Below are positions 2,391 to 23,675 of a stretch of 25,842 nucleotides of DNA, piece by piece. Made by a program: the position numbers and the translations under genes. Position 1 is the stretch's first letter. The number at the start of each line of letters is the position of its first letter. This DNA comes from a virus (Duplodnaviria > Heunggongvirae > Uroviricota > Caudoviricetes). The DNA lies in the IMG/VR virus record IMGVR_UViG_2609459774_000006, positions 1 to 25,842 of that record; one strand, 5' to 3'. A model generated the notes under the pieces. That model had not been told where the DNA came from, searched no databases, and saw nothing but the letters and a program-made list of their open reading frames with translations.

Positions 2391-3512
2391 TTAGTCATCA
2401 ACCGCGACTCCTGCACAATCATGGGCTATTGCCAGCAATTGTTTTTTAATTGCTTTAGCATCTACCGTCATATCTACTGTAGCAAAATGGATCTTATGTC
2501 CCTGAGTGACAACATACTCATTAAGCATATAGCCAACAGCTGGATGAAGTAGAAGACCAGCGGCATTGAGCGAAAGCGGATCCGTCTTGTTCTCCTGTGT
2601 TCTAAGGTAGGTATATAGCTGATAAATATAGCCATTACGTAGTGATTGCTCCCGATGCCAACCCTTTGTCAGAATCGAATTAAATTTGGTATCGATAATA
2701 ATACGCCGCTGGGCAGTCTTGTGTTCCAGAATAATGTCTGACTTCATTGTCGGGAAAATCTCTGCACTACCTGCACTTTGATCGCTCAACGCCCATTTCA
2801 GCTCTTTCCCTGCAGAGACCTGCCAAGTTGTTTTGGCAAGGTGTACACGATATAAGCCAGCGATACCTTTTTCAAATAGTCTTCTCATCCAGTAAAGGTT
2901 ATTTGAGGGCGCAGGTAAAAGATATTGGCCTTGATCTTCGGTCGGCATCAGCAGTTCAAAAGCTAATCGTGCGGCATCGACCATCGGTTTATCTGCGGCA
3001 TCATGGCGTCCAAAACGCCACACTGAGGGTAATTCGTGGGGGGCAGGATATCCTCCATTTATCCCCTCACGGCGAAGTGATATTGCCATAAAATGGCAAT
3101 CTGCCGCCAAAGACGGTTTCACTATGATTGAGGCCAGATGTTCTAACGCACAGCGAACATAGCGATTTCGGGGGGTGTTGAGGGTTATGTCTTGAAAATG
3201 GCAGGCAACCTGTCCCCGTTCCAGTAGTTGATGACTGGCAGTATACAGTATGTCAATGCGCCCTCTCACTCGGTTCAGGGCCGCATGACAAGTTTGGTAT
3301 CCCATATTTAAATTGCGACGTCGGCGCAGCGTAATCTCATGAAGGAGGATTGTCGCCACCAGGTCGGGGATTTCTGCTGGGTTATCTTCTACTGCGATCT
3401 GATTGCGCCCTAACTGACGAAACAGATCTGAAGCGTACAGCATCAGCATCCAGATATTTCGCATGGGAATACGTGATGCTGTATGTTGCTCACTCCCGGT
3501 TATTGTCGTCAT
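2391..3512 (-). CDS. McrC-like subunit of a McrBC-type (type IV, modification-dependent) restriction system, 373 aa
   Basis: Follows and overlaps the McrB-like gene by 4 bp; C-terminal PD-(D/E)xK-like segment (..ILEHKTAQRRIIIDTKF..). Confidence 0.7.
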   Translation of the reverse strand: MTTITGSEQHTASRIPMRNIWMLMLYASDLFRQLGRNQIAVEDNPAEIPDLVATILLHEITLRRRRNLNMGYQTCHAALNRVRGRIDILYTASHQLLERGQVACHFQDITLNTPRNRYVRCALEHLASIIVKPSLAADCHFMAISLRREGINGGYPAPHELPSVWRFGRHDAADKPMVDAARLAFELLMPTEDQGQYLLPAPSNNLYWMRRLFEKGIAGLYRVHLAKTTWQVSAGKELKWALSDQSAGSAEIFPTMKSDIILEHKTAQRRIIIDTKFNSILTKGWHREQSLRNGYIYQLYTYLRTQENKTDPLSLNAAGLLLHPAVGYMLNEYVVTQGHKIHFATVDMTVDAKAIKKQLLAIAHDCAGVAVDD

Positions 3513-5491
3513 TTTGCTAATAACACTTTTCTGGCTTCATCGACTTTATTTGGAGCATCGAACCAATATTCGGCGAGCAAAGGGCAGATCTCTGTATCAA
3601 CGACTTGTTCATACCAAGCCTGGGCATCGTTGATTTTTTGGCCGATAGCTGGGGTGACATAGCTGTGACCGATACAAAACTGTGGTCCTAAGGTAACATC
3701 TTTTGCCAGCATATCGTTAAGTACCGTCAGTCGAGATTTGATGAATGCTAACATGTCAAAATCAATTGCGTAATTATAATTTACCCAGTTTCTCCACGCG
3801 TCATTAAAAGCTGGCTTTAGATCGATAAACGCGAAACGACGGCGCAGCGCTAGGTCAAGTAGTGCGAGTGAGCGGTCTGCAATATTCATCGTACCGATGA
3901 TATATAGATTCTCAGGAATGTATATTTTTTCATCATCATTTTTAGGATAGGAAAGAGATAATGCCTCAGTCGGCGTGCGTTTATCTGCTTCCATCAACGT
4001 GAGTGTTTCACCGAAGATTTGCGCCGGATTGCCACGATTAATCTCTTCAATTATCACCACATATTTCGAGGTAGGATTATTGACTGCAGTTTTGATTGCA
4101 TTTACAAAAGGTCCATCAATTAGCGTCAATTGCCCTTCTTTACCTGGACGCCAGCCGCGAATAAAGTCTTCGTAAGAGAGGTTCGGGTGAAATTGCACCG
4201 CGCTAATACGCTCAGGTGCTTTTTCTCCCATCAAGCAGTACGCCAGACGTCGCGCTAACCAGGTTTTTCCAGTTCCGGGTGGTCCTTGTAATATCAGGTT
4301 TTTCTTGTCGATCAGGCGCTGAAGTGTGAGTTGGATCTTAGCCTCTTCCAAGAAACAGCCATCCTGCACCAGATGACTGATGTCATAAGGAACGTGAGTG
4401 AGTTTTGGCAACGGCGCACTCTCTTCGACAGTTTCCTCAGTTATCGTCTGGGATTCATTTTTCTCAAAATTCAGGTATTCATAATTTCCGGACTCAAGGG
4501 ACTTTAACTCATCATCATTGCATAGTTTCTGTAGATAAAAGTAGATTGAGCTTGTAACTGTTTTGCTCTCAGGATGCTCTACCTTGAATACGTCCAAGTA
4601 GTTTTCTTCCAACTCCGAAGCAGTGAAATAAGGGCCATTTTTTTTCAGGCATAACGCCTTAATTTTATTCAGTAAAGAGGCTTTCCACGTTCTATTTGCC
4701 ACCTCATCTTTAGACTGGCTAAGATCTGTATTCCACGCTGATAAAGAAAGTTCTGGGAAAGAATGAACCGGATAGTTTGGTTGGGTAAAGACCTCGTTCA
4801 GCGCCCGCATAAGACTCAGGTAACTTTGTCCACTACAGCGACCTTTTGCCCCGTTTTTAATGATCTTAATGTTTAACACTGTCTGAATGTAATACTGCGA
4901 CTGGCTATCTAAAGTAGGGTAGAACCAAGGACGGGTCCAGTACAACCCCATGGTGAGATTCCAACCGACATTCATTACTGTAGAAGCAATGTCATATGCG
5001 GCAGTGAAGTCTGCAGAGTTAGTATTCTGGTTATCCGCAAAGGTCATTGCCTGCGAGAACATTTCCCACAAGCATTCAATGTCATTAGGGTCGCGTGACT
5101 TTTCATAACCAAAGAACCAAGATTTTTGGTTATTCAACAGCGGGATTCCGGCAAAGGAGTCAGGAATCGGTTCGTTCACGCCCAACAAATTCGCTAGCTT
5201 GGCAGCAATAATTTTGCGATTGCTGTCGGTCAAGTTACGATTGAACAAGCCCATAGTAGTAAACGGACAAATGTCTTTTAAGGGAAAGATCTCTCCCATA
5301 ATAGATTTGTCCTGCAGATGGGACATTCCTTCCACACCTGAGGCAATTAGATGAATACCTTTGACTAATTCATCTCTACGATTTCGCCAAGTCAGTAACG
5401 CGTTGGCAAAAGCCTCATAAAAACTAGCCCAAGCAAATTTGCCATCATGTTCTGCTGTATCCACGGGAACTCCATTATACTTGTTGAGCAA
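3509..5491 (-). CDS. McrB-like AAA+ GTPase (660 aa) with a ~395-aa N-terminal region unlike canonical McrB
   Basis: Walker A LILQGPPGTGKTW and McrB-type signature IIGTMNIADRSLALLDLALRRRF in the C-terminal ~260 aa; N-terminal region not recognised. Confidence 0.8.
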   Translation of the reverse strand: MLNKYNGVPVDTAEHDGKFAWASFYEAFANALLTWRNRRDELVKGIHLIASGVEGMSHLQDKSIMGEIFPLKDICPFTTMGLFNRNLTDSNRKIIAAKLANLLGVNEPIPDSFAGIPLLNNQKSWFFGYEKSRDPNDIECLWEMFSQAMTFADNQNTNSADFTAAYDIASTVMNVGWNLTMGLYWTRPWFYPTLDSQSQYYIQTVLNIKIIKNGAKGRCSGQSYLSLMRALNEVFTQPNYPVHSFPELSLSAWNTDLSQSKDEVANRTWKASLLNKIKALCLKKNGPYFTASELEENYLDVFKVEHPESKTVTSSIYFYLQKLCNDDELKSLESGNYEYLNFEKNESQTITEETVEESAPLPKLTHVPYDISHLVQDGCFLEEAKIQLTLQRLIDKKNLILQGPPGTGKTWLARRLAYCLMGEKAPERISAVQFHPNLSYEDFIRGWRPGKEGQLTLIDGPFVNAIKTAVNNPTSKYVVIIEEINRGNPAQIFGETLTLMEADKRTPTEALSLSYPKNDDEKIYIPENLYIIGTMNIADRSLALLDLALRRRFAFIDLKPAFNDAWRNWVNYNYAIDFDMLAFIKSRLTVLNDMLAKDVTLGPQFCIGHSYVTPAIGQKINDAQAWYEQVVDTEICPLLAEYWFDAPNKVDEARKVLLAK

Positions 5492-7922: not shown

Positions 7923-8093
7923 CTATCGCTTCGAAGGTGGAGGCCAGACGGGGTTTACTGTATCAACACGGTTCAGCAATACCCGATATGTTTTCCATGC
8001 GGCCAGAAACGCTTTCTCTTCCTCCGTTGCGATCTCCAGCTCAGCAAGAGTCTGAACGTACCAGGAACAGCCTCCTTCAGGGCTTGAAGGATA
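7923..8093 (-). pseudogene. Tail fibre assembly (Tfa)-like C-terminal remnant, in frame with the upstream tail-fibre fragment beyond its TGA stop
   Basis: Translation ..[41 protein letters not shown] resembles the conserved Tfa C-terminal motif; no start codon. Confidence 0.35.
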
Positions 8094-8808
8094 TCAATGT
8101 TCGCTTCCTGTTAACTGCCGGACAAGTGCAACCAGTTCGCTTACCTGATTTTCCAGAGTGCTGATCCGGGTGCCTGCTGTTGCCAGATTTTGACGTAGCG
8201 TTGTGTTTTCCTCTTCCAGCGCGGTAACGCGATCATCTGTTTCACGGGCGACCTGAACAAGTAAACCCGTCACGGCGGAGTAGTCAACATTAAGATAGCG
8301 AGTTTCTTCGCGTAGCTCGTTGCCGTCAACGGTCGGACCTTGCAACTCTTCACCATAATGAGTAAACGATCCCACAGCTTCTGGTATCGCCTCCATTACT
8401 TCCTGTGCAATAACGCCAGCATAAGGCATCCCGTTTTCCTTGAGCGTGTAGGTGTATCCGTTCATTTTACGGATTGCTTTCGTCGCGTCGCTGATAACGA
8501 GAATATCGTCTTTAAGGTCGCGGTCTGATGACTGATTCAGCGTTGTGCAATTAATAGCGCCATTTACATCAAACAACTGGCCTGCTGACGTTTTTTGCGC
8601 ATAAAACAGATACGCAGCAGACGTTCCAACCTCAAAAACGTTTTGTCGAGTACTGGAACCCCACACCCTGACAGAAAACGGTAGTTCTGCATTACCTGAG
8701 TTCTGTAAAACAAAACGATTACCAGTCCCTGATTGCTTTGTAAGGGTTAAATCAACGGTTGAGTTAACCTCATTCTTGTTGATAGTGAGCGTCTGCGCTG
8801 TAGCCCCG
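8094..8808 (-). pseudogene. C-terminal fragment of a side tail fibre protein (no start; fused to lysozyme remnant)
   Basis: Frame stays open upstream of the 190-aa ORF to ~8808 (..[22 protein letters not shown]..); coiled-coil tail ..TALEEENTTLRQNLATAGTRISTLENQV. Confidence 0.55.
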
Positions 8809-9091
8809 TTATATCAACTTTTATGTACGGGTTAATTTGTCTGGCGACCGTGGCAAGGTCTTTATTCAGGAGGGCTTTGCATTCTGCTTTGGTATACGTT
8901 TTACCGAGCATGATGTCTTTTCCTGTATGCCCGTGACATACAGTCCATACACCAACAATATCTTTGTATGGTATGTAGCTGACACCTTCCAGACCATCGT
9001 TACCACTTGGGCCAGTGATTAACACTGATGCTATAGCAATTGCTCCGCCACCAATAGCAGCAGCAACGGCTTTTCGTAATGATGGAGGCAT
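8747..9091 (-). pseudogene. rrrD: Truncated phage lysozyme (RrrD-like N-terminal ~94 aa, then out-of-frame junk)
   Basis: [57 protein letters not shown]... matches lysozyme N-terminus; homology ends near 8812 where the tail-fibre frame begins. Confidence 0.75.
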
Positions 9092-9306
9092 TATTCACCT
9101 CTCGCAGCCTTGCGCTTATCTTCTTTAATCTTGAAATAAAGGTTTGTCAGGTACGTCAGCAGGCCAAATACCAGGCTACCCAGCACACCTATTGCTGCCC
9201 ACTGTGAGGGCGTGACTTTATCGAGCAGCTGTAAAAACCAGTAACCGGCACTACCTGCTGAGGTGCCATAGGCGACACCCGTTGTTAACTTATCCATGGA
9301 TTTCAT
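9091..9306 (-). CDS. essD: Class II holin (phage 21 S / EssD-like), ~71 aa; the ORF extends to 9351 with an upstream TTG/ATG
   Basis: [26 protein letters not shown]... with dual-start MKSM motif and TM segments; stop overlaps the lysozyme start (ATGA). Confidence 0.75.
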
Positions 9307-9894
9307 AACCCCACCTCGCAGACAAAGCGGGTGTAAATTGAGGGAATACAACGTATCGCAAAAAAGCAGAAACGTAACAGACTCGGAGTCAGTGAATAAC
9401 TCAGGTATTGAGTTATCAGCTAATATCGAGACTCAAAAAATGGAAAAACCAGCTCGACGGCGGGTTTAAGCTGTGTGACGAAGTAACCACTCTTAACAGC
9501 ATAACCAATTTTTTACGTACGTAAACCACTGAATGATATTTATGAGAATGCTACCGAGTGTTCAAAACACCACCACAAATACATAAGAAAACCTCAACAA
9601 ATAACCAATAAATAATTTCAGACGTTATTTTTAGTTGATTTAAATTAAACTGCCGAATTATAGAACCTCCATAAATAACAACCATTAATATAAATTAGCT
9701 AATAGGTTTATTTTTGTTCAAATAAGAGCCATAAATAGGTTTCGATAGAAAAAGTTCAGATAAAAATAGAGATCTACTTCACAAATTAAATGAGAAACTA
9801 AAACTTACATCTTGAAATAATCACATTGATTAGATGAATATTTATCGCGCAGTGACATCATTTTTTAATAATAGTTCAAAAAAAAGGGCTCACG

Positions 9895-10977
9895 ATGAAA
9901 AAATTAACAGTGGCAATTTCTGCTGTAGCTGCATCAGTACTGATGGCGATGTCTGCTCAGGCAGCTGAAATTTATAATAAAGACAGTAACAAGCTGGATC
10001 TATATGGGAAAGTTAATGCCAAGCACTACTTCTCCTCTAATGATGCAGATGATGGTGATACTACTTATGCCCGTCTTGGCTTCAAAGGTGAAACCCAAAT
10101 CAACGATCAACTGACTGGTTTCGGTCAGTGGGAATATGAATTCAAAGGCAACCGCGCTGAATCTCAAGGCTCCTCCAAAGACAAAACCCGTCTTGCATTT
10201 GCAGGCCTGAAATTCGGGGACTACGGCTCAATCGATTACGGCCGTAACTACGGTGTAGCATATGACATCGGTGCGTGGACTGACGTTCTGCCAGAATTCG
10301 GTGGCGATACCTGGACCCAAACAGATGTGTTCATGACTGGTCGCACCACTGGTGTTGCAACTTATCGTAACAACGACTTCTTTGGTCTGGTTGATGGTCT
10401 GAACTTTGCTGCTCAGTATCAGAGTAAAAATGACCGCACTGACGTAACTGAAGCTAATGGTGATGGTTTCGGTTTCTCCACTACTTATGAGTATGAAGGA
10501 TTCGGTGTAGGTGCAACCTATGCTAAATCTGACCGCACTAATAATCAGGTTATCTACGGTAACAACAGCCTGAATGCATCTGGTCAAAATGCTGAAGTAT
10601 GGGCAGCTGGTCTGAAATATGATGCGAACAACATCTATCTGGCTACCACCTATTCTGAAACCCAGAACATGACTGTTTTTGGTAATAACCATATTGCCAA
10701 CAAAGCACAAAACTTCGAAGTAGTTGCACAATATCAGTTCGACTTCGGTCTGCGTCCGTCCGTTGCTTACCTGCAATCTAAAGGAAAAGACTTGGGTGCG
10801 TGGGGTGATCAGGACCTGGTTGAATATATTGATGTAGGTGCAACCTATTACTTCAACAAAAATATGTCCACTTTTGTTGATTACAAAATCAACCTGATTG
10901 ATAAGAGCGATTTCACGAAAGCATCTGGCGTTGCTACCGATGATATCGTTGCTGTAGGTATGGTTTACCAGTTCTAA
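9895..10977 (+). CDS. nmpC: Outer-membrane porin of the OmpC/OmpF family (NmpC/OmpD-like), 360 aa, intact
   Basis: Signal peptide [23 protein letters not shown], porin-type beta-strand sequence ending ..VGMVYQF; SD aaaaaggg upstream. Confidence 0.85.
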
Positions 10978-10992
10978 TTTGATTACTAAAAG

Positions 10993-11048
10993 ATATGTTG
11001 CGGGAGGCTTTGCCTCCCCAACATATAAGTGGCTCCCTCAAGCCACTT
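10993..11048 (+). terminator. Two tandem stem-loops downstream of the porin gene (10993-11026 and 11027-11048)
   Basis: atatgttgcgggaggctttgcctccccaacatat and aagtggctccctcaagccactt are self-complementary; no strong T-run. Confidence 0.35.
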
Positions 11049-11114
11049 CCTTTAGGAGCACAACCTTGCTTCTAACTATATAAACCTTCTGTTATATATT
11101 ACCCTTTATTTTTG

Positions 11115-11148
11115 GGGGCGTTGCAACGCCCCATTTTTAATAATTTTT
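11115..11148 (+). terminator. Intrinsic terminator (GC stem ggggcgttgcaacgcccc followed by ATTTTTAATAATTTTT)
   Basis: Perfect 18-bp palindrome followed by T-rich run on the plus strand. Confidence 0.55.
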
Positions 11149-11165
11149 AGTAAACAATTGGCATA

Positions 11166-11549
11166 TTAATTAGAGTTATTAACAACGATATCCATCTCTA
11201 ACCGGATATCTAATGCCATTAACATCCCTTCAATTATGCCCTCAGCCTTCTGTAACCTTTTCCCGATATAACCATCAGAGCAGCAATGCTTACCTGCCAG
11301 TGACATGAATGTCATACCGACTACATAATAATCTACTAATAAATCGTGCAAATCGCTGTTGTTCTTTTTCAGACGGGCCATGCACCCGCAAATAATCATC
11401 GCGTCATCGTCACAACATTGCGGGCGAGATTTTACTTTTGAAGTAATTAATCCCTTAAAACCGGCGGCAATGGACGACCAGGTCACATCTTCATGATTAT
11501 TAGCCGCCCACGCTCCCCAACGCTCAAGAACCATCTGAATATCACGCAT
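11166..11549 (-). CDS. quuD: Late-gene antiterminator Q (QuuD-like), 127 aa
   Basis: [33 protein letters not shown]... matches recalled QuuD; the ORF track extends 5 codons upstream. Confidence 0.85.
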
Positions 11550-11634
11550 CAACTTACTCCACAAAAATCAGACCAGAACGCCAATTACAAGCAAAAATCA
11601 ACAAAACAGTATTAGTTGATTGTTATCTCTGACT

Positions 11635-11772
11635 TCATACTCCTGCTCCTGTCAGGGTTTTGGCGTAATTCTTCAGTATTCGGTAATCGGTCAAAACAGA
11701 ACCGGGGAAACGATATAAGCGCAGATGCCCCCAGCGGTGGCGAAGAAGTTCTGCCATATAAAACTCAAACAT
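11635..11772 (-). CDS. ylcG: YlcG-like small protein, 45 aa
   Basis: Hand translation [45 protein letters not shown]; start overlaps the rusA stop (TGATG). Confidence 0.55.
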   Translation of the reverse strand: MFEFYMAELLRHRWGHLRLYRFPGSVLTDYRILKNYAKTLTGAGV

Positions 11773-12134
11773 CATTCATTCCCCATTTCGGTGATGGTCA
11801 GTTCCAGCCTCCCACCTTTGGTAACAGGCATCTTCACAACGCGGTAATCAACGACCTGAGCATCATCCAGCCAGAAACCTGCTTTGGTGAGTGCGTCAAA
11901 AGCGGCTTTTTGCAGATTATCCAGGTCACGGCGACGGCGATCCGGCATGTGGCACTCAATACGGATTTTCACTGGCATAGCCAGGCCGATATCCAGCATT
12001 GCGTTTTTAATGATTCGGGTGACGTTATCGCGGTATGCCTGCCCTTCTGCGCTGATGTGCGTGCGCCCGCGATTATGGCGGTAATAGCGATTATTGCTCG
12101 GAGGCCAGGGTAATGTGATGCTGTAGGTATTCAC
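11772..12134 (-). CDS. rusA: Holliday junction resolvase RusA, 120 aa
   Basis: [36 protein letters not shown]... RusA family. Confidence 0.9.
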
Positions 12135-12421
12135 GCCTTAATAACCCCCTCTTTCAGCCAGATAACCTGTGTTCTCGCCATACCTTCCAGCGCGCATTCT
12201 TTTGCATATGCAGCATCGACAAAATGTGTGCGGCGGTCGATTTCGTCGTGGCAGGCAGAACATGCAATGGTGGCAATCAGGTCTGGCGGTTTGATACCGG
12301 TACCGCACAATCCAGCCAGCCGGATATGTGCCAGTACAGACGTTTCAGAATTGCCATTACATACGCCAGGGATTCTTACCTGGCATTCCCGACCACGCGC
12401 TGCTTTTCTCAAATCAGCCAT
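12131..12421 (-). CDS. ybcO: YbcO-like DUF1364 protein (nin-region putative nuclease), 96 aa
   Basis: [37 protein letters not shown]; ORF track extends upstream to 12460. Confidence 0.8.
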
Positions 12422-12584
12422 GATTCCTCCTTGCTGCCAGTCGCAACCATTTTTTATCAACCAGGCTGGCGGTATATCCGAGCAGAGTTGGTATTTCGGA
12501 TGGCTTCAGCTCAGGTTTACGCTTACGACGATTTGGTACTTTGTAGATGTGTCCGTTCATGACACGAATAAGCGGTGTAGCCAT
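12414..12584 (-). CDS. ninE: NinE-like protein, 56 aa
   Basis: [56 protein letters not shown]; start overlaps the ninB stop. Confidence 0.75.
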   Translation of the reverse strand: MATPLIRVMNGHIYKVPNRRKRKPELKPSEIPTLLGYTASLVDKKWLRLAARRNHG

Positions 12585-13039
12585 TACGCCTCCTGCTTGT
12601 CGCGCAGCAGCTGGAACTCGCAGCGCTGCGGAATAGTCAGGTGGCAACCAATATTCATCGCCCAGGCTTCAACCTTACACAGGAAGACATACATCTCTCC
12701 GGTATCAAGATCGGAGGTATGGCGTAACGACTGGATAGTGGTGATATCACCGGTTACGACATCAACCAGTTCTTTGGTTTCATAACCGAGATAAGTGTGT
12801 TTCAGAGCATCCTTCACCCACTCTGGCGTAGCGAAAGTCTTACCCCGGCTGATGAGGTATTCGCTGATTTCGGTGTACCACATGTGGCTTAAGCTATTTT
12901 GAGACAGGCTGCGCTTATCGCGCCATGGCTTCAGTACCATGCGGAAGCACTTGCCGTCCTCCAGATAAGGCTGGAGCTGCTGACCGATAGCGGTGAAGTT
13001 ACCGCGATGAAGTTTGATGCCGTCTTGTGGGAGGTTCAC
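12584..13039 (-). CDS. ninB: NinB/YbcN recombination protein, 151 aa
   Basis: [60 protein letters not shown]... NinB family. Confidence 0.85.
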
Positions 13040-13160
13040 GCTTCACCTCCGCAGAGGTCAAACGCTGGATGCAAAAAATCGCAGGTGCATTTCTGCATCT
13101 GTGGCGGGAGAAGAGAGTTTAGATTGTATGTGCGCATAAACGTCCCCGTTTAGCGCAGAA

Positions 13161-13299: not shown

Positions 13300-13929
13300 C
13301 TAAAACAAGGATAAACTTTGCCCTGCTCCAGGCGTTGGCTTTACAAATGTTACATCTTTAATTCTTTCGCCTAGGAGAAAAAATTTGTCCAAAGATAGCG
13401 ATGGTATTGTTGCAAACCCATCAGCCCCCTTTTTCCTAGCAACCCCTCTCACGTCCATGAGAATTCGCCCTAATACGTTCATACCATAATAGTTACCTTC
13501 TGGGTCTTTACTGGCACCCCAGAATTGGTCCTTCTCTGAGTGTTCCACGATGAAATGGTCGCCTGTACTGTCTAACAGCGCAAAGAACGTATCCCAGTTC
13601 TGGCATAATTTTACGCATACACACCACTTCATAATCGAAACTCGATTCTTATCCCATCCTGCGCGAGTTTTGGATTCAAACGATCTTGCGGTCTGCTTGG
13701 CTTCATAGGGGTTTCCTTGAGTAATGATGGCCTTTTGTATATCCGGATAGTCTGGATATCGGCATGCTTGGTAAAGGATTTCACTTGATTGAATAGGCAA
13801 CCCATTGATTAACAATGGATATCCTTTAGCCATGTTGGAAAGCCCCCCCCATTTTTCGGTGGTTTTCCTGAAGGAAACTGTGTTCTGTAGCGGATATAAT
13901 CTATAGCTCATACCACTCATTATACCCAT
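13300..13929 (-). CDS. NADAR (YbiA-like, DUF1768) domain protein, ~203-209 aa; alternative starts at 13929, 13920 and 13911
   Basis: Family hallmarks: ..GGLSNMAKGYPLLINGLPIQSSEILYQACRY.. and ..LLDSTGDHFIVEHSEKDQFWGASKDPEGNYYGMNVLGRILMDVRG; overlaps the upstream gene. Confidence 0.75.
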   Translation of the reverse strand: MGIMSGMSYRLYPLQNTVSFRKTTEKWGGLSNMAKGYPLLINGLPIQSSEILYQACRYPDYPDIQKAIITQGNPYEAKQTARSFESKTRAGWDKNRVSIMKWCVCVKLCQNWDTFFALLDSTGDHFIVEHSEKDQFWGASKDPEGNYYGMNVLGRILMDVRGVARKKGADGFATIPSLSLDKFFLLGERIKDVTFVKPTPGAGQSLSLF

Positions 13930-14932
13930 TCCGCTTCATTAGTGGATACCAGCAGTCCAATGCGGGAGCACCTGTTGGTTCATAATCTCCCCACCAAAAA
14001 GCCAGCGGCACATTATTCGGGCAATTTCGATAAGTAAATGTTGTTCCCCCAAAACCCAAACCGTCAAAAGTAGAAAAACCTAGAGGTTTGAGCACCTCAC
14101 TAGGGGTTTTCCTGTGCAGCAAGATATTAAAGCCGACTTTAGTAAGGATAGATTCGAAACGATCCCTTGAGGCTTCATTTCTAAAACTATCAGAAGAGGC
14201 ATATCCATCTCTGAATACGCCTTTGTAAAGCTCACACTCCTCGAATTTCTCGGGAGTATCTACACTATATTTCCTTGGCCAGAAAACACCTGATTGAGCA
14301 GAACGACTTTTTCGGTTTTCAACCTCACGCATACCACCATTCTTCACGTGTACAAAAATGTTTCTATCCTTAAAAATATATTCTAATCGTCTTTTTATAT
14401 TATAGTCAGATAACGTATGAGATGAAAAAAAATATACATTGAATTTAATATCTCTTAAATTAAATTTTAAAACAAAATTACTTATCGATTTGATGGCCTT
14501 TTCTCCTGAAAACGACACATCATCAATATATACAAATGTATCAAATTTATTTACTTCATCTTGAGTTGATGATTCAGTAACGATGTTAAATTTGATCCCT
14601 ACTGTTTCATAAAGAGATTTAAGCAATTCCTTCTGACTAGAACCTTTTTTTTGAATATCTAAAAAACCTGCATATCTGAAGAATTTCGCGTTCTTTTCAC
14701 TTCTTGCAATGGCTTTTATTTTTCGTTGATATTGACTTTCGGATAGGTAACCTGCATTAAGTAGATAAAGCGTTTCATCTAAGATAAATCGTCTATCCTC
14801 CACTGCAAATTGCTTAATCCATTTGCTGACATGTTCAGAGTTCATACCTTCAGCCGGAGGATATTTATAATCGCTCAACTTTTCAGCAATTTTATTGATT
14901 ACTTTTTCACCAGATAAAATATTCGAGGACAT
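13901..14932 (-). CDS. Unknown 343-aa protein with a PRPP-binding-loop-like motif (FVYIDDVSFSGEK); partner of the NADAR gene
   Basis: Long ORF with SD AAGGAA 8 nt before ATG; very AT-rich; motif hhhhDDxxxSG resembles type I phosphoribosyltransferase loop, but the fold is unverified. Confidence 0.6.
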   Translation of the reverse strand: MSSNILSGEKVINKIAEKLSDYKYPPAEGMNSEHVSKWIKQFAVEDRRFILDETLYLLNAGYLSESQYQRKIKAIARSEKNAKFFRYAGFLDIQKKGSSQKELLKSLYETVGIKFNIVTESSTQDEVNKFDTFVYIDDVSFSGEKAIKSISNFVLKFNLRDIKFNVYFFSSHTLSDYNIKRRLEYIFKDRNIFVHVKNGGMREVENRKSRSAQSGVFWPRKYSVDTPEKFEECELYKGVFRDGYASSDSFRNEASRDRFESILTKVGFNILLHRKTPSEVLKPLGFSTFDGLGFGGTTFTYRNCPNNVPLAFWWGDYEPTGAPALDCWYPLMKRNGYNEWYEL

Positions 14933-15730: not shown

Positions 15731-15925
15731 TTAAATAAATCCGACTGCTTTACGCGCTTTGTATTGCTCAAGCAAAAGCTGAGCGGGAGTCGGCCCGGGC
15801 ACGTGGCGCGGAGCCGAGATTTGTTTTCTGACCGGAGGGATTGGTTTGCCCTCACTGACGCGCTTCTCCCACATGTCCAGCAGGTCACCAGCCTCGCATG
15901 CCAGCTCGCCATGCGTTAAACCGAA
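15731..15925 (-). pseudogene. P: C-terminal fragment of replication protein P (about 63 aa)
   Basis: ..GLTHGELACEAGDLLDMWEKRVSEGKPIPPVRKQISAPRHVPGPTPAQLLLEQYKARKAVGFI* aligns with the lambda P C-terminus as recalled; no N-terminus on this strand. Confidence 0.5.
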
Positions 15926-15929
15926 TTTT

Positions 15930-16178
15930 GCAGGGTGGGCTAACGATATCCGCCTGATGCGTGAACGTGACGGACGTAACCACCGCGACATGTGCGTGCT
16001 GTTCCGCTGGGCATGCCAGGACAACTTCTGGTCCGGTAACGTGCTAAGTCCGGCCAAACTCCGCGACAAGTGGACCCAACTCGAAATCAACCGTAACAAG
16101 CAACAGGCTGGTGTGACTGCCAGCAAACCAAAACTCGACCTGACAAACACTGACTGGATTTACGGGGTGGAGCTATGA
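15930..16178 (+). pseudogene. O: C-terminal fragment of replication initiator O (about 81 aa), on the opposite strand to the O N-terminus
   Basis: ..ANDIRLMRERDGRNHRDMCVLFRWACQDNFWSGNVLSPAKLRDKWTQLEINRNKQQAGVTASKPKLDLTNTDWIYGVEL* matches the lambda O C-terminus. Confidence 0.6.
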
Positions 16179-16765
16179 AAAATATTGCCGCGCAGATGAT
16201 TAACTTTGACCGTGAGCAGATGCGTCGAATCGCCAACAACATGCCGGAACAATACGACGAAAAGCCGCAGGTGCAGCAGGTGGCGCAGATCATCAACGGT
16301 GTGTTCAGCCAGCTGCTTGCGACATTTCCGGCAAGCCTCGCGAACCGCGACCAGAACGAGCTGAACGAAATCCGCCGTCAGTGGGTTATGGCTTTCCGTG
16401 AAAATGGAATTACCACTATGGAGCAGGTTAACGCCGGAATGCGCGTGGCCCGCCGACAGGAGCGACCATTCCTGCCGTCGCCCGGCCAGTTCGTAGCGTG
16501 GTGTAAGCAGAGTGGCGGGGCGTTAGGTATCACTGTTGACCAAGTCATAACCGAATACTGGGATTGGCGTAATCGTTCCTTCGAATTCACTTCCAGCGAG
16601 CATTTCCCGTGGTCACAGCCTGTCATGTACCACATCTGCGTCGAACTGCGCCACCGTAGCATTGAGCGCCAGTTTCTGGCTGATGGCGCGATGGTCTTCA
16701 CCATGTCAAACATCCACTCTGCGGCGGTCAGGTCTTCTGCTGTCCCCCACCTGCTGCCGCTCTGA
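16175..16765 (+). pseudogene. P: N-terminal ~170 aa of replication protein P (helicase loader); the ORF tail after ~16680 is probably not P
   Basis: MKNIAAQMINFDREQMRRIANNMPEQYDEKPQVQQVAQIINGVFSQLLATFPASLANRDQNELNEIRRQW.. matches the lambda P N-terminus; start overlaps the O stop as in lambda. Confidence 0.65.
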
Positions 16766-17429: not shown

Positions 17430-17969
17430 TCATATTGCCCCCAGCATGGTGGTGACCATCGCCATCAATGGACCAGCCAGATCCGGGTCCACTCGAAACA
17501 TCGACACAATGCCTTCACTCATCTCCTTCAGTTTCTGGTGGCGTGGTGCGTTGAGAATGACCGCCTGCTTTGCCTCACAGAGTTCCTTTTCCATTTCAGC
17601 CAGCCGAGCCATGAAGCTATCCTGCTCAACCAGGTGGCCGCGATATTCCAGCGGTAGTACCGCCAGAATTGCCGGGGTCAGTTCACGCACGTTATTTCGG
17701 TATTTTTCAGAATCGAATTTGTTATCGAGGAAGCGGAACAGCTTCTGGCGTGCACGGCTGACATCATCAGGGAAATCGATAGTGCCGCCGCCCTGCTCCC
17801 GATACTCATTCACAATGAGTGTGGCAACGACATCCTGATTATCTTCAGCCGACCAGGCGCGGACGGCATCACGGATTTTTTCGTGGCCTGGCACCTGTTT
17901 TGTTTGAGAACGATTTATCACCGCAGTCGGGCTAAATCCGCTAGTCTGTTGGTATGTAAGTGGTTGCAT
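17430..17969 (-). CDS. YdaT-like protein at the cII position, 179 aa
   Basis: Segments ..VATLIVNEYREQGGG.. and ..LTPAILAVLPLEYRGHLVEQ.. resemble Rac prophage YdaT; directly downstream of the cro-like gene. Confidence 0.6.
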   Translation of the reverse strand: MQPLTYQQTSGFSPTAVINRSQTKQVPGHEKIRDAVRAWSAEDNQDVVATLIVNEYREQGGGTIDFPDDVSRARQKLFRFLDNKFDSEKYRNNVRELTPAILAVLPLEYRGHLVEQDSFMARLAEMEKELCEAKQAVILNAPRHQKLKEMSEGIVSMFRVDPDLAGPLMAMVTTMLGAI

Positions 17970-18038: not shown

Positions 18039-18269
18039 TTAAGCTGCGTTCTTTTCGGTGTGTGGAAACAACTTCGGAAGATCCGGGCGAATCTGGTATG
18101 CCTTCACTACTCCACCAGTAGCCGTAACAATGCTGCCGACATGTTCAGGGGATACCTTTGCTTTGTTGTGAAGCCACTTATAGACGGCCTGCTGTGAAAC
18201 TTCGCAGGCAGCGCCCAGTTTCTTTTGTGAACCAACGATATTGATCGCTGTTTTGATAGCTGGATTCAT
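18039..18269 (-). CDS. cro: Cro-like HTH regulator (YdaS family), 76 aa
   Basis: Small HTH protein ..QKKLGAACEVSQQAVYKWLHNKAKVSPE.. divergent from the CI-like repressor. Confidence 0.7.
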   Translation of the reverse strand: MNPAIKTAINIVGSQKKLGAACEVSQQAVYKWLHNKAKVSPEHVGSIVTATGGVVKAYQIRPDLPKLFPHTEKNAA

Positions 18270-18373
18270 AACAACCTCCGTGGTTAATTTGAATCAAGAT
18301 TAAAACTATGGTTGTTTTTAGTCAACAACCATTTTCGTTTGATGGAATAAAACCTTGGTTGTACATTTGGACT
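18270..18373. promoter_or_regulatory. Right operator/promoter region between cro and cI with dyads built on AACAAC/GTTGTT half-sites
   Basis: ATGGTTGTT-N7-AACAACCAT (9-bp perfect inverted arms) plus AACAACC..GGTTAAT in the divergent intergenic region. Confidence 0.5.
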
Positions 18374-19063
18374 ATGAAAACAACACTCTCAGAAAGACTT
18401 AAAGAAGCCAGATTAGCGCGAGGCCTTACACAAAAGGCGCTTGGGGATTTGGTCGGGGTTAGCCAAGCTGCTATTCAGAAAATCGAAACAGGGAAAGCTA
18501 ACCAAACAACTAAAATCGTGGAGATCGCGAACGCTTTGGGTGTGCGCGCAGAATGGTTATCTTCTGGCGTTGGAAATATGTCAGACAGTACAGTGCAACC
18601 AATACAATCAACTGTCAGCCATTCCAAATACTTTAAGATTGACGTTCTTGATATAGAAGTGAGTGCCGGGCCGGGAGTCATCAACCGTGAATTTGTAGAA
18701 GTTCTACGCTCGGTTGAGTACTCGTTTGACGATGCTCGTCACATGTTCGATGGCAGGAAGGCGGAAAATATCCGCATCATTAACGTGCGTGGTGACAGCA
18801 TGTCAGGAACGATCGAACCAGGTGATCTGCTGTTCGTTGATATCACGGTTAAATCTTTCGACGGTGATGGTATCTATGCGTTTCTGTACGACGACACAGC
18901 CCATGTAAAGCGCCTGCAAATGATGAAAGATAAGCTACTGGTTATCTCTGATAACAAGAGCTACTCACCGTGGGACCCGATCGAGAAAGACGAGATGAAC
19001 CGGGTGTTCATTTTCGGGAAGGTTATTGGCAGTATGCCGCAGACGTATAGGAAACACGGATAA
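18374..19063 (+). CDS. cI: CI-type repressor with N-terminal HTH and C-terminal S24 (LexA-like) autopeptidase domain, ~229 aa
   Basis: HTH ..LTQKALGDLVGVSQAAIQKIETGK..; S24 motifs ..VRGDSMSGTIEPGDLLFVD.. and ..HVKRL..; the ORF track starts earlier at 18308 inside the operator. Confidence 0.85.
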   Translation: MKTTLSERLKEARLARGLTQKALGDLVGVSQAAIQKIETGKANQTTKIVEIANALGVRAEWLSSGVGNMSDSTVQPIQSTVSHSKYFKIDVLDIEVSAGPGVINREFVEVLRSVEYSFDDARHMFDGRKAENIRIINVRGDSMSGTIEPGDLLFVDITVKSFDGDGIYAFLYDDTAHVKRLQMMKDKLLVISDNKSYSPWDPIEKDEMNRVFIFGKVIGSMPQTYRKHG

Positions 19064-19142
19064 TCAGCTGCGTGCTGATGAGGCTTTTGGGTAATGCGCT
19101 GAAAGAATTCTTTATAAAAATAACATTACGGGAAAGGCAAAA

Positions 19143-19412
19143 ATGAGTGATAAAAAACTTATAAAAAAATCAAATAACTGTGTAGATGCATATGCTGATG
19201 CATTTGGATATTCATCTTTTGGGGAAGATGACGATCGCTTAGGCTCCATATCTTTCTTTCAGCATGTTACAGAATGGGGCGCTGATGGTAGTAATGACAC
19301 TGAAAACGTAAAGTACAACATTGCAACAATTCGCATGACGGAAGATTTAATGCTTAAACTCGCTGACTTTATTCGCGATCAGCATGATAGAGCTAAAACC
19401 AATAAGTCATAA
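19143..19412 (+). CDS. Unknown acidic 89-aa protein in the immunity operon (rexA position)
   Basis: ORF with SD GGAAAGG before ATG, same strand as cI; no recognisable family. Confidence 0.5.
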   Translation: MSDKKLIKKSNNCVDAYADAFGYSSFGEDDDRLGSISFFQHVTEWGADGSNDTENVKYNIATIRMTEDLMLKLADFIRDQHDRAKTNKS

Positions 19413-19420
19413 TATTAACA

Positions 19421-19861
19421 ATGAAACACGGTTATTACGAAGCTCCAAACCTAACTGAAAAGCTTGAACAAGCGGCAAGATCATCATCTTTGCACACTGC
19501 AGCATTTTCTCAATCAGCTGGTATGTCTGGCGGTAATGTACCTATGCTACAATCAAGTGGTAGCGGTGGCTCTGGGAGTAATAATGTGCTTGAATCGAAA
19601 GTTGCAAAGCTTGAGTCTGATGTGTCCTATATCCGACGTGACGTTGATGAGCTTAAGACAGATGTCAAATCTATCGACAGAAACATGATCGCTGTTCTGG
19701 AGCGACTCGATTCAATAAAAGATTCACTAGCCAAAAAACCCTCCATCGATGCTGTCGATAGAAAGATTTCAGACGCAAAGCTTGCGGTATTGCTTGGTGT
19801 TCCAGCAATCATCGCTGCAGGAACAGGTCTTTATAAGCTATCAATGTACTTTTTTCTTTAG
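19421..19861 (+). CDS. Unknown 146-aa protein: Ser/Gly-rich N-terminus, coiled-coil, C-terminal transmembrane anchor (rexB position)
   Basis: ..VAKLESDVSYIRRDVDELKTDVKSIDRNMIAVLERLDSIKD.. then hydrophobic tail LAVLLGVPAIIAAGTGLYKLSMYFFL; starts 9 bp after the previous gene. Confidence 0.55.
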   Translation: MKHGYYEAPNLTEKLEQAARSSSLHTAAFSQSAGMSGGNVPMLQSSGSGGSGSNNVLESKVAKLESDVSYIRRDVDELKTDVKSIDRNMIAVLERLDSIKDSLAKKPSIDAVDRKISDAKLAVLLGVPAIIAAGTGLYKLSMYFFL

Positions 19862-19936: not shown

Positions 19937-19966
19937 AAACCCGGCCCCAGTGCCGGGTTTTCTTTT
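19937..19966 (+). terminator. Intrinsic terminator ending the immunity operon
   Basis: Stem acccggc/gccgggt with 6-nt loop followed by TTTTCTTTT. Confidence 0.6.
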
Positions 19967-20080
19967 GCCTCCCCTCATCACACAAACCGTTCAAAAAACC
20001 ACCACAACCTCGCTTCAGTTATCGCTATGCGATGCAAGTCACAAAATAAATCCATCTTAAATACAACCAGTTATATCTAA

Positions 20081-20140
20081 AACAACCAATAAAACAACTT
20101 TTGTTGTTGACGATAAAACAACTATAGTTTTAAATGAATT
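20081..20140 (+). promoter_or_regulatory. Putative pL/oL: -35 TTGACG (20107-20112), 17-bp spacer, -10 TTAAAT (20130-20135), overlapped by AACAAC-TTTT-GTTGTT dyad
   Basis: Hexamers and spacing read from the sequence; same half-site as the cro-cI operators. Confidence 0.4.
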
Positions 20141-20208
20141 CATCGCAACAACACAACGATACGGCAATCACCTGATTCACCGTTGCGATGACCGCTTAGA
20201 TCCGCAGC

Positions 20209-22459: not shown

Positions 22460-22614
22460 CGCATCCTCACGATAATATCCGGGTAGGCGCGATCACTTTC
22501 GTCTACTCCATTACAAAGCGAGGCTGGGTATTTCCCGGCCTTTCTGTTATCAGAAATCCACTGAAAGCACAGCGGCTGGCTGAGAAGATAAATAATAAAC
22601 AGGAGGATATATGA
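22456..22614 (+). CDS. Small hypothetical protein (52 aa) bridging exo and the DGQHR gene
   Basis: Hand translation [52 protein letters not shown]; ATGA overlaps at both ends. Confidence 0.4.
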
Positions 22615-23675
22615 GTCAGGTTGGTAATCATTCATTCGAATTTCCGGCATCGCAAGGTGTACAGGGTGGTACTGTTACACTCTTCCTTACCATACCAGGA
22701 AGATCGCTGGCTCGTTTCCTCGCTTCAGATAATTACGGCCATACACTGGAACGCTCTCAGCGAGAAATTAATCCAAATCGAGTACGAAAATTTTTAAATT
22801 ATCTCACTAACGCAGACTCAAGAAATGAGTCTTTTATCATTCCCCCTCTCGTAGGTAACTGTGATTCGAATATAGAATTTGTACCGTTTGGCAACACAAA
22901 TGTTGGTATAGCCAGAATTCCCCTCGACGCCGAAATAAAACTTTTTGATGGCCAACATCGTGCAGCTGGCATTGAGATATTTTGCCGAAGTTCCCCATCA
23001 ACGCTCATGGTTCCCATGATGCTTACAATGAATCTGCCGCTAAAAACCCGGCAGCAGTTCTTTTCGGACATAAATAACAACGTTTCTAAGCCATCAGCGA
23101 CCATCAATATGGCGTATAACGGCCGGGATGATATTGCTCAGGGAATGATATCCTTCCTGACCCAACATACTGTATTTGCCGATATAACCGATTTTGAACA
23201 CAACGTAGTGCCATTAAAAAGTAATATGTGGGTGAGTTTCAAGGCACTCACTGATGCAACGTCAAAGTTTGCTAGGAACGGCAATCAACAACTTGAAATG
23301 GGATATATAGAATCTGTCTGGGAGGCATGGATTACACTAACTCAGATTGACTCAATCCGACATGGTGTACACCACGCTACGTACAAGCGCGATTATATTC
23401 AGTTCCATGGAGTAATGATTAACGCTTTCGGTTTTGCGGTTCAACAGATGATGGTTAATCATTCCATCGCAGAAATAACTTCTATGATCGAAAAACTCTG
23501 TGCAACTACCAGCTCTGCAGAAAGAGAGGATTTTTTTCTGATGGATAACTGGGCGGGGATCTGCACGAAAGCCAGCCAGGAAAAACTATCGGTTATTGCC
23601 AATGTGGCAGCGCAGAAAGCAGCAGCAAACAGACTGATACAAGCTTTTACCAAAGGAAGTCTGGAAACAACTTAA
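22611..23675 (+). CDS. DGQHR-domain protein (DndB-like, ParB/sulfiredoxin-fold superfamily), 354 aa
   Basis: Literal motif ..AEIKLFDGQHRAAGIEIF.. in a 354-aa ORF; family assignment from motif only. Confidence 0.65.
   Translation: MSQVGNHSFEFPASQGVQGGTVTLFLTIPGRSLARFLASDNYGHTLERSQREINPNRVRKFLNYLTNADSRNESFIIPPLVGNCDSNIEFVPFGNTNVGIARIPLDAEIKLFDGQHRAAGIEIFCRSSPSTLMVPMMLTMNLPLKTRQQFFSDINNNVSKPSATINMAYNGRDDIAQGMISFLTQHTVFADITDFEHNVVPLKSNMWVSFKALTDATSKFARNGNQQLEMGYIESVWEAWITLTQIDSIRHGVHHATYKRDYIQFHGVMINAFGFAVQQMMVNHSIAEITSMIEKLCATTSSAEREDFFLMDNWAGICTKASQEKLSVIANVAAQKAAANRLIQAFTKGSLETT

Follow-up and report, generated by a model that had tools for sequence, protein, structure and literature searches.

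Which kind of genes do prophages place directly behind their repressor gene, at the position where phage lambda carries rexA and rexB? This question is raised by two small genes, here called orf89 and orf146, in a stretch of 25,842 nucleotides (nt) from a virus of the Caudoviricetes (IMG/VR record IMGVR_UViG_2609459774_000006). The whole stretch was analysed and is referred to as the window; its plus strand corresponds to the leftward strand of lambda. The pair belongs to a large and modular family and is not isolated, a point that had been missed by an original prediction made from the sequence alone. The two genes very probably form a lysogen-expressed, membrane-tethered accessory module of two parts. 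Judged by position, architecture and variation pattern, it is on balance probable that the purpose of this module is interference with other phages.

The repressor operon and its two distal genes

The operon consists of the following elements:

18374..19063, plus strand: cI repressor gene, the first gene of the operon (HTH_3 and Peptidase_S24 domains; start according to the Prokaryotic Genome Annotation Pipeline, PGAP)
19064..19142, plus strand: spacer of 79 nt between cI and orf89; the cassette begins at about 19117-19127, with the ribosome-binding site (RBS) GGGAAAGG
19143..19412, plus strand: orf89, 89 amino acids (aa); soluble partner, proposed sensor or adaptor
19421..19861, plus strand: orf146, 146 aa; predicted coiled-coil membrane protein
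19421..19585, plus strand: orf146 residues 1-55, variable N-terminal segment and Gly/Ser linker, co-varying with the partner gene
19583..19738, plus strand: orf146 residues 55-106, canonical heptad coiled coil (heptad pattern, AlphaFold2 (AF2) model, Pfam matches to coiled coils only)
19775..19831, plus strand: orf146 residues 119-137, single, highly conserved C-terminal transmembrane (TM) helix (Kyte-Doolittle hydropathy, alignment)
19937..19966, plus strand: intrinsic terminator ending the cI-orf89-orf146 operon (9-bp GC-rich stem followed by a T run)

The original prediction had described an AT-rich pair on the strand of a CI repressor gene and directly 3' of it, coding for an acidic 89-aa protein and for a 146-aa protein with a coiled coil and a C-terminal TM anchor, closed by an intrinsic terminator and located at the rexA/rexB position. 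This description was borne out. Both open reading frames (ORFs) are present on the plus strand, and the gene at 18374-19063 codes for a repressor with matches to Pfam HTH_3 (5e-13), Pfam Peptidase_S24 (1e-18) and PHROG 4 (9e-73). The terminator with its GC-rich stem and T run was located, the computed coiled coil and TM helix occupy residues 55-106 and 119-137 of orf146, and the GC contents of orf89 and orf146 are 36.7% and 42.7%, compared to about 52% in the flanks. The acidity of orf89 is mild (pI 4.98; 16 Asp and Glu versus 12 Lys and Arg). With regard to position, a relative in phage HK544 lies between cI and the terminator Timm, and 68 of 87 related loci lie behind cI or mnt.

The two genes are separated by 8 nt and share the strand of cI. 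A scan of the cI-orf89 spacer for promoter-like or terminator-like sites found none. The unit shared with P22-like copies extends from 16-26 nt 5' of the orf89 ATG to 6 nt 3' of the orf146 stop codon. Because the homology unit shared with other phages spans only the RBS and the two genes, the cassette, as far as its sequence tells, is a mobile RBS plus two genes lacking a promoter and a terminator of their own. From the missing promoter and terminator we infer that orf89 and orf146 are co-transcribed with cI. The terminator at the end of the operon is the counterpart of lambda Timm, and equivalents are annotated in HK544 and VT1-Sakai.

Both genes are real genes under purifying selection and not chance ORFs, because the ratios of nonsynonymous to synonymous substitution rates (dN/dS) are low and both ORFs are intact in the E. 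coli records listed. Relative to diverged copies, dN/dS is 0.05-0.11 for orf89 and 0.16-0.25 for orf146; values of 0.17-0.54 were obtained for the variable N-terminal part of orf146 (residues 1-55). At least 80% of the pair is carried by 198 of 5426 complete E. coli genomes, either as the pair itself or as an allele that is about 79% identical. Among the records listed of these 198 genomes, both ORFs are intact and annotated as two hypothetical proteins. Carriers of the pair or of the close allele include O26 and O111 strains; the O26 record states O26:H11.

For orf89, a soluble protein with a beta-beta-beta-alpha fold is predicted. In orf146, the heptads of residues 55-106 are unbroken, and 14 of the 15 a and d positions are hydrophobic (a = V,V,V,V,M,L,L; d = L,L,I,L,I,V,I,K). 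The AF2 model contains helices at residues 53-104 and 109-145; with a predicted local distance difference test (pLDDT) score of 58, it is fit for secondary structure only. The Kyte-Doolittle value of residues 119-137 is 1.80, and the rest of the protein does not exceed 0.21. Since orf146 has no signal peptide, basic residues before the TM helix and only about seven residues after it, its predicted topology is that of a tail-anchored inner-membrane protein with a cytoplasmic N-terminus.

An alignment of 40 sequences identified L124, L125, G126, P128, T135, Y138 and K139 as invariant, and a KKPS..D.V..KI..AK motif is conserved just before the helix. Most of the invariant residues of the family thus fall in the TM helix and the juxtamembrane motif. 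Such conservation is unusual for a passive anchor and suggests that the helix packs specifically, be it in self-association or against a membrane protein of the host. Having invariant G, P and T residues within the helix, flanking Y and K residues and sister variants with an XhlA-type C-terminus, the TM part of orf146 looks effector-like.

A modular family in repressor operons

Members of the orf146 family are called effectors in the following, and the genes directly upstream of them partners. The full length of orf89 matches phrog_4231 (2.2e-49), and orf146 matches positions 128-265 of the 276 positions of phrog_3556 (4.3e-54); both PHROGs have no assigned function. The orf89 family is narrow, with 8 clusters at 50% identity among 1.84 billion representatives, and the orf146 family is broad, with 375 clusters at 90% identity. 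Among the 120 orf146-family clusters listed, all named members are from Enterobacterales.

The genomic context was surveyed in 87 loci from IMG/VR, a species-representative genome set and assemblies; each allowed an effector homologue to be read together with its partner and with the gene that precedes the partner. A scan of genome contigs returned 6 loci. The next upstream genes were grouped at 90% identity, and the resulting 44 clusters were classed by means of Pfam. A lysogeny repressor gene on the same strand directly precedes the partner in 28 of the 44 clusters, which correspond to the 68 loci mentioned above. These repressors are of three unrelated kinds (14 clusters Peptidase_S24, 9 Phage_CI_repr and 5 Arc/Mnt). 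The junctions are tight: in P22-like prophages the ATG of the partner overlaps the mnt stop codon (ATGA), and in Salmonella the partner starts 2 nt past the cI stop codon. The other contexts are typical sites of accessory genes: copies lie at the edges of prophages, and one insertion among lambda-like tail genes is on the opposite strand.

Annotated phages place the family in the same slot. For HK544, a wild phage of lambda immunity, the depositors give the order pRM, cI, HK544c104 (93 aa), HK544c103 (183 aa), Timm, oL/pL, N. HK544c103 is a member of the family, with 55% identity to a family effector in a tblastn comparison; the same interval of lambda contains cI, rexA, rexB and OL. In the Shiga toxin 1 (Stx1) phage VT1-Sakai, the order is cI, ECs2991, ECs2992, a "terminator for pRM transcript", OL/PL, N and sieB. 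UPF_BP1, which is P22-like, and related prophages contain a pair of the orf89/orf146 type between mnt and gene 16, a position that in P22 is taken by orf59a and sieA. Between cI and N lies a known hotspot of mosaic diversity, which includes the abortive-infection genes rexAB and bstA (PMC8585504). As would befit an accessory block, the cassette has a distinct GC content, occurs in lambdoid and P22-like backgrounds alike and has a homologue that is expressed in lysogens. It differs from a classical moron, which has its own promoter and terminator; both are missing here.

Two groups of loci are arranged differently. In Citrobacter (L007:5474-5854; also L008-L010, L068 and L070), the cassette is followed by a third gene on the same strand, which codes for a 126-aa lipoprotein with a weak match to the BamE domain (9e-4). 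In Pantoea (L034:3540-4279 and L065:1022-1761), the partner position is occupied by a second protein with coiled coil and TM helix, so that two effector-like genes are located in tandem beside a host gene of the AraC type.

All effectors are built of four parts. An N-terminal segment, which is variable and 35-75 residues long, is followed by a linker rich in Gly, by a coiled coil whose onset is marked by a near-invariant (M)LEARVAKLE motif, and by the TM helix at the C-terminus. There are at least four different coiled-coil/TM modules, one of which is XhlA-like. The upstream genes form 12 BLAST groups; most are families of small partner proteins, and a few are host genes or duplicated effectors. 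The partner families include the orf89 type, a beta-rich type of 136-160 aa, a type of 93-106 aa, a Zn-ribbon type and an 88-aa type. An hhalign comparison of orf89 with the 93-aa and 88-aa partner families was collinear, with an E-value of 0.02 and a probability of 2%; homology is not claimed.

Partner identity follows the N-terminal segment of the effector and not its TM module, and the coiled-coil/TM module is exchanged independently. For example, the window and UPF_BP1 are 76% identical in the partner, 76% in the N-terminal segment and 31% in the coiled-coil/TM module. The corresponding values for the window and Pantoea are 12%, 18% and 79%. Among the 51 unique combinations, no case of one partner with different N-termini was observed. 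In 17 pairs of combinations, partner and N-terminus are common and the C-terminus differs; the reverse applies to 243 pairs. The co-variation of partner and N-terminus is significant (Mantel r = 0.44, p = 0.001). Because these two elements co-vary while the coiled-coil/TM module is swapped, the most economical interpretation is a docking of the partner on this segment of the effector; partner and segment would then be the specificity unit, and the coiled-coil/TM module the output unit.

Divergence is confined to the cassette. When the window is compared to a related locus (L015), the cI proteins are 100% identical and the flanks, including cI and OL/PL, reach a nucleotide identity of 96-100%. 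In contrast, positions 19100-19800 of the window and 4680-5400 of L015 are only 67-84% identical and form a sharply bounded diverged allele. This pattern may be the signature of an arms race and was counted in favour of interference with phages.

Expression has been documented for the homologous cassette of O157:H7, whose products were detected in uninduced lysogens by published proteomics and microarrays, in three observations independent of one another. ECs2991 is one of 394 proteins that were quantified by the isobaric-tag method iTRAQ in an uninduced culture (PMC3936929). The cassette ECs2991-ECs2992 of VT1-Sakai belongs to the same family and occupies the same slot as the window pair, with a partner of about 93 aa directly upstream of the effector. 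Over 96 residues, the effector module of ECs2992 shares 29% identity with that of orf146 (E = 7e-10); the KKPS motif and the location of the TM helix are common to both. ECs2992 differs from orf146 by its own beta-rich N-terminal domain and a different TM sequence, and its ECs2991-type partner is of a different family than orf89, with a weak profile match only (E 0.02). The VT1-Sakai pair is likewise uncharacterised.

Possible function and relation to known systems

The following mechanism would account for these properties. As a passenger of the maintenance-repressor operon, the cassette would be made from the repressor transcript in every lysogen. The effector orf146 would insert into the inner membrane by its tail, with its N-terminus in the cytoplasm, and would oligomerise to a dimer or trimer via its coiled coil. 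The small soluble orf89 would sit on the N-terminal docking segment and give specificity. [quoted passage not shown] This module could then damage or gate the membrane and cause abortive infection in a manner similar to RexA-RexB or to holin/XhlA, or it could block genome entry. The complete scheme, with abortive infection by membrane damage as the favoured route, falls somewhat short of an even chance. Taken by itself, the step of membrane damage as opposed to an entry block is doubtful.

Several points weigh against interference with phages as the purpose. Some copies are located outside repressor operons, and no promoter was found for them; a promoter scan of the tail-region copy (L027), for example, yielded nothing convincing. 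Part of the co-variation could stem from the adjacency of the genes, together with recombination where the coiled coil begins and is conserved. The expression evidence reaches the window pair by family and not by orthology, because the effector module of ECs2992 is only 29% identical to orf146, and its partner is of another type. Only about seven residues of orf146 follow the TM helix, which speaks against an action in the periplasm. Finally, the searchable literature contains no phage phenotype for any family member, and there is no similarity to any PADLOC v2 model.

According to the original prediction, the pair is uncharacterised and a candidate for a lysogen-expressed, membrane-associated exclusion or abortive-infection module at the position of RexAB. 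The first claim agrees with our homology and structure searches, which led only to PHROGs of unassigned function and to coiled-coil noise. Scans of orf89, orf146 and three other partner types against Pfam, NCBIfam and PADLOC gave only such noise; in PADLOC-DB v2.0.0, it was limited to orf146 (E of at least 0.006), and orf89 and the three other partner types matched nothing. Sequence profiles of the PDB gave nothing for orf89 (best E 0.5) and only coiled coils for orf146. A Foldseek comparison of the orf89 model with viral models gave one match, an unnamed 93-aa protein (E 2e-3). Literature searches by accession or locus tag found nothing on the window proteins, and no paper characterising a family member was found in the searchable literature. 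GiPD474, a defence protein from the immunity region of Gifsy, was considered and rejected; it is an ATPase-domain protein unrelated to the pair. Of the second claim, the part that concerns the operon position with the repressor stands, and no homology to RexA, RexB, SieA or PADLOC models was detected.

One match of the effector family was set aside. Its profile (19421-19858) weakly matches the trimeric coiled coil of the tail needle gp26 of HK620 and P22 in the PDB profiles (5bu8/5bu5, E 0.016-0.025, about 88 residues), and a PHROG annotated as tail needle was matched at E 0.098. The match at E 0.016 was judged compositional, and the likeness probably reflects the composition of the heptads; mimicry is an alternative idea.

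The pair resembles RexAB only in its position and size, in the number of its genes and in the logic presumed for it; by sequence comparison, it is not homologous to RexAB. The likeness to RexA-RexB comprises the order of cI, two genes, Timm and OL/PL, transcription with the repressor, and the combination of one soluble protein with one small membrane protein of about 145 aa. For RexA-RexB, a logic of sensor plus membrane effector has been proposed (PMC12894663). A BLASTP comparison of orf89 with RexA gave E = 5.1, orf146 and RexB gave no alignment, and no Rex family was among the Pfam matches of the pair up to E = 1. Furthermore, RexA has 279 aa, whereas orf89 has 89 aa and the predicted fold described above; RexB has four hydrophobic segments, whereas orf146 has one C-terminal anchor and a predicted cytoplasmic coiled coil. 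Swappable partners and TM modules mark the cassette family, unlike RexAB. BstA of the Salmonella prophage BTP1 is encoded directly downstream of cI as well, is highly expressed in the lysogen and causes abortive infection (PMC8585504). In contrast to the pair, it is a single large cytoplasmic DNA-associated protein of unrelated sequence that has no membrane component.

That some gene pair occupies the slot in the repressor operon will not surprise phage specialists. The module would be of a known kind, the exclusion or abortive modules that are built from unrelated proteins in repressor operons of prophages. If it is anti-phage, it would be a new and unrelated solution to the problem that RexAB addresses, and a simpler one, consisting of an 89-aa partner and a coiled-coil protein with a single TM helix. 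The mechanism of RexAB is still unresolved after about 70 years. The modular design, with one conserved effector and several unrelated partners that track the docking segment, could reveal the way in which a membrane effector is linked to sensing. Because the pair or its allele is found in 198 of 5426 complete E. coli genomes and relatives are present in the O157:H7 Stx1 prophage, the module could influence how susceptible pathogenic strains are to phages used in therapy or typing, as well as the competition between Stx phages. Family breadth, modular build, the presence in a lambda-immunity phage and a Stx prophage, and experimental simplicity make it a good target of study. We propose only tentatively, and with the greater part of our expectation against it, that the pair represents a new, Enterobacterales-wide modular family of prophage defence, in which a docking peptide recruits interchangeable unrelated sensors and whose cassette repeatedly replaced genes of the RexAB or SieA type. 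This proposal covers the insertion into cI, CI_repr-type and mnt operons, including those of the lambda-immunity phage and of the O157:H7 Stx1 prophage.

Among the alternatives to this assignment, pure superinfection exclusion fares best and is still unlikely. [quoted passage not shown] It is in agreement with this explanation that P22-like prophages hold the pair in the interval of P22 orf59a and sieA and that variable partners would suit fast-evolving targets such as ejection or tape-measure proteins. SieA is an inner-membrane blocker of injection (PMC10883804) and shares with the cassette this interval in P22-like phages, the inner-membrane location and the expression in lysogens. However, the injection blockers that are known either are polytopic or are exposed to the periplasm, whereas orf146 exposes hardly anything on the outer side of the membrane. 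SieA acts as one polytopic protein; it has four hydrophobic segments, compared to one in orf146, and its own promoter, whereas translation of the cassette overlaps with that of mnt. Searches of PHROG, Pfam and PADLOC gave no match that relates the pair to SieA. Moreover, the strong conservation of the TM helix and the occurrence of XhlA-type variants are more in keeping with an effector than with a plug.

It is improbable that the module acts in lysogen physiology or in the control of lysis and lysogeny, by tuning induction, membrane stress tolerance or host fitness, or as a protein of the ElaB/YqjD type. A tail-anchored coiled-coil architecture is also found in stress proteins, which was counted for this explanation. 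So was RexAB itself, which is reported in a preprint to aid the transition from lysogenic to lytic growth (bioRxiv 10.1101/2021.04.19.439022). Yet the pair has no Pfam match to DUF883/ElaB, and the extreme diversity of partners and the restriction of divergence to the cassette are hard to square with a housekeeping-type role. Moreover, the cassette serves three unrelated types of repressor and is therefore not tied to one switch.

An addiction module that would stabilise the prophage in the manner of toxin-antitoxin systems, with orf146 as membrane toxin and orf89 as antitoxin, is very improbable. The order of a small acidic protein and a membrane protein with a gap of 8 nt resembles type II systems, and the pair has been retained in a decaying prophage. 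A pair that is co-transcribed constitutively and has neither a promoter of its own nor autoregulation by the antitoxin is atypical of such systems, however; the sequence scan found no promoter-like site ahead of orf89, and the partner shows neither DNA-binding nor protease-labile features. The toxin-antitoxin and abortive-infection roles are compatible and not mutually exclusive.

Effectors share with XhlA (PF10779) of the Bacillus prophage PBSX the succession of a coiled coil and a C-terminal TM helix, and 2 of 28 family members, which are sister variants, match the XhlA Pfam family (best 1.9e-5). That the cassette is an XhlA-like lysis accessory misplaced in the immunity region and active only after induction is nevertheless scarcely credible: apart from weak PHROG and Pfam matches to XhlA, holin and hemolysin and some database entries titled "hemolysin XhlA", orf146 reaches 11.5 bits (E 0.34) compared to the XhlA gathering threshold of 34.7, the window prophage retains only a lysozyme fragment of a lysis cassette, and XhlA lies in a lysis cassette with holin and endolysin, whereas the orf146 family was in no lysis cassette among the loci examined and sits in lysogen-expressed repressor or mnt operons, at the tail-region moron site and at prophage edges.

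The surrounding immunity region and prophage

The lambdoid immunity region around the operon also contains the following elements:

18039..18269, minus strand: cro-like gene, an ORF divergent from cI (annotated as transcriptional regulator in the identical NZ_CP035860 locus)
18270..18373, no strand assigned: putative OR/PRM-PR control region, by analogy with lambda OR
20040..20150, plus strand: OL/PL-like region with repeated ACAAC/GTTGT operator-like sites, by analogy

An operator-like palindrome, ATGGTTGTT...AACAACCAT, is located at 18308-18332 within the putative OR/PRM-PR region. In related loci, genes equivalent to the cro-like gene match YdaS_toxin. Beside it, at the position of lambda cII, a 179-aa YdaT-domain protein is encoded (17430-17969), and this arrangement was found again in many related loci. 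The OL/PL-like region is followed by kil-gam-bet-exo genes.

The window corresponds to a cryptic prophage beside icd in E. coli NZ_CP035860, with an identity of 99.95-100%. The differences are an extra block of 5.2 kb and an inversion of 757 bp. The inverted segment (15918-16674), which is flanked by otherwise 100% identical prophage sequence, interrupts replication genes similar to lambda P/O; inverted repeats were sought at its ends, and none were found. The extra block (7982-13150) is missing in NZ_CP035860 and contains fragments of a tail-fibre chaperone and of a lysozyme, the complete gene of a Gram-negative porin (9895-10977; Porin_1 4e-153) and the gene of antiterminator Q (11166-11564). 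Structural and lysis genes of the window are present only as fragments, all inside this block, which has the look of a segment from a different lambdoid late region with a phage-borne porin.

In this decayed prophage, the intact pair has been kept together with several genes of the defence type, and this retention was counted in favour of interference with phages. The genes of a NADAR protein (209 aa) and of a PRTase-CE protein (343 aa) overlap (13300-14932); their PADLOC matches are PDC-M42C (1.5e-8) and the PRTase of type III-A retrons (7.5e-11), and no reverse transcriptase gene was noticed nearby. A McrBC-like pair (2391-5491; McrC 1e-20, AAA_5 ATPase 4e-27) is located at one prophage end. 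A DndB-like DGQHR protein (3e-46) is encoded at 22611-23675, in the PL operon between exo and xis. Taken together, the decayed prophage looks like a small defence island.

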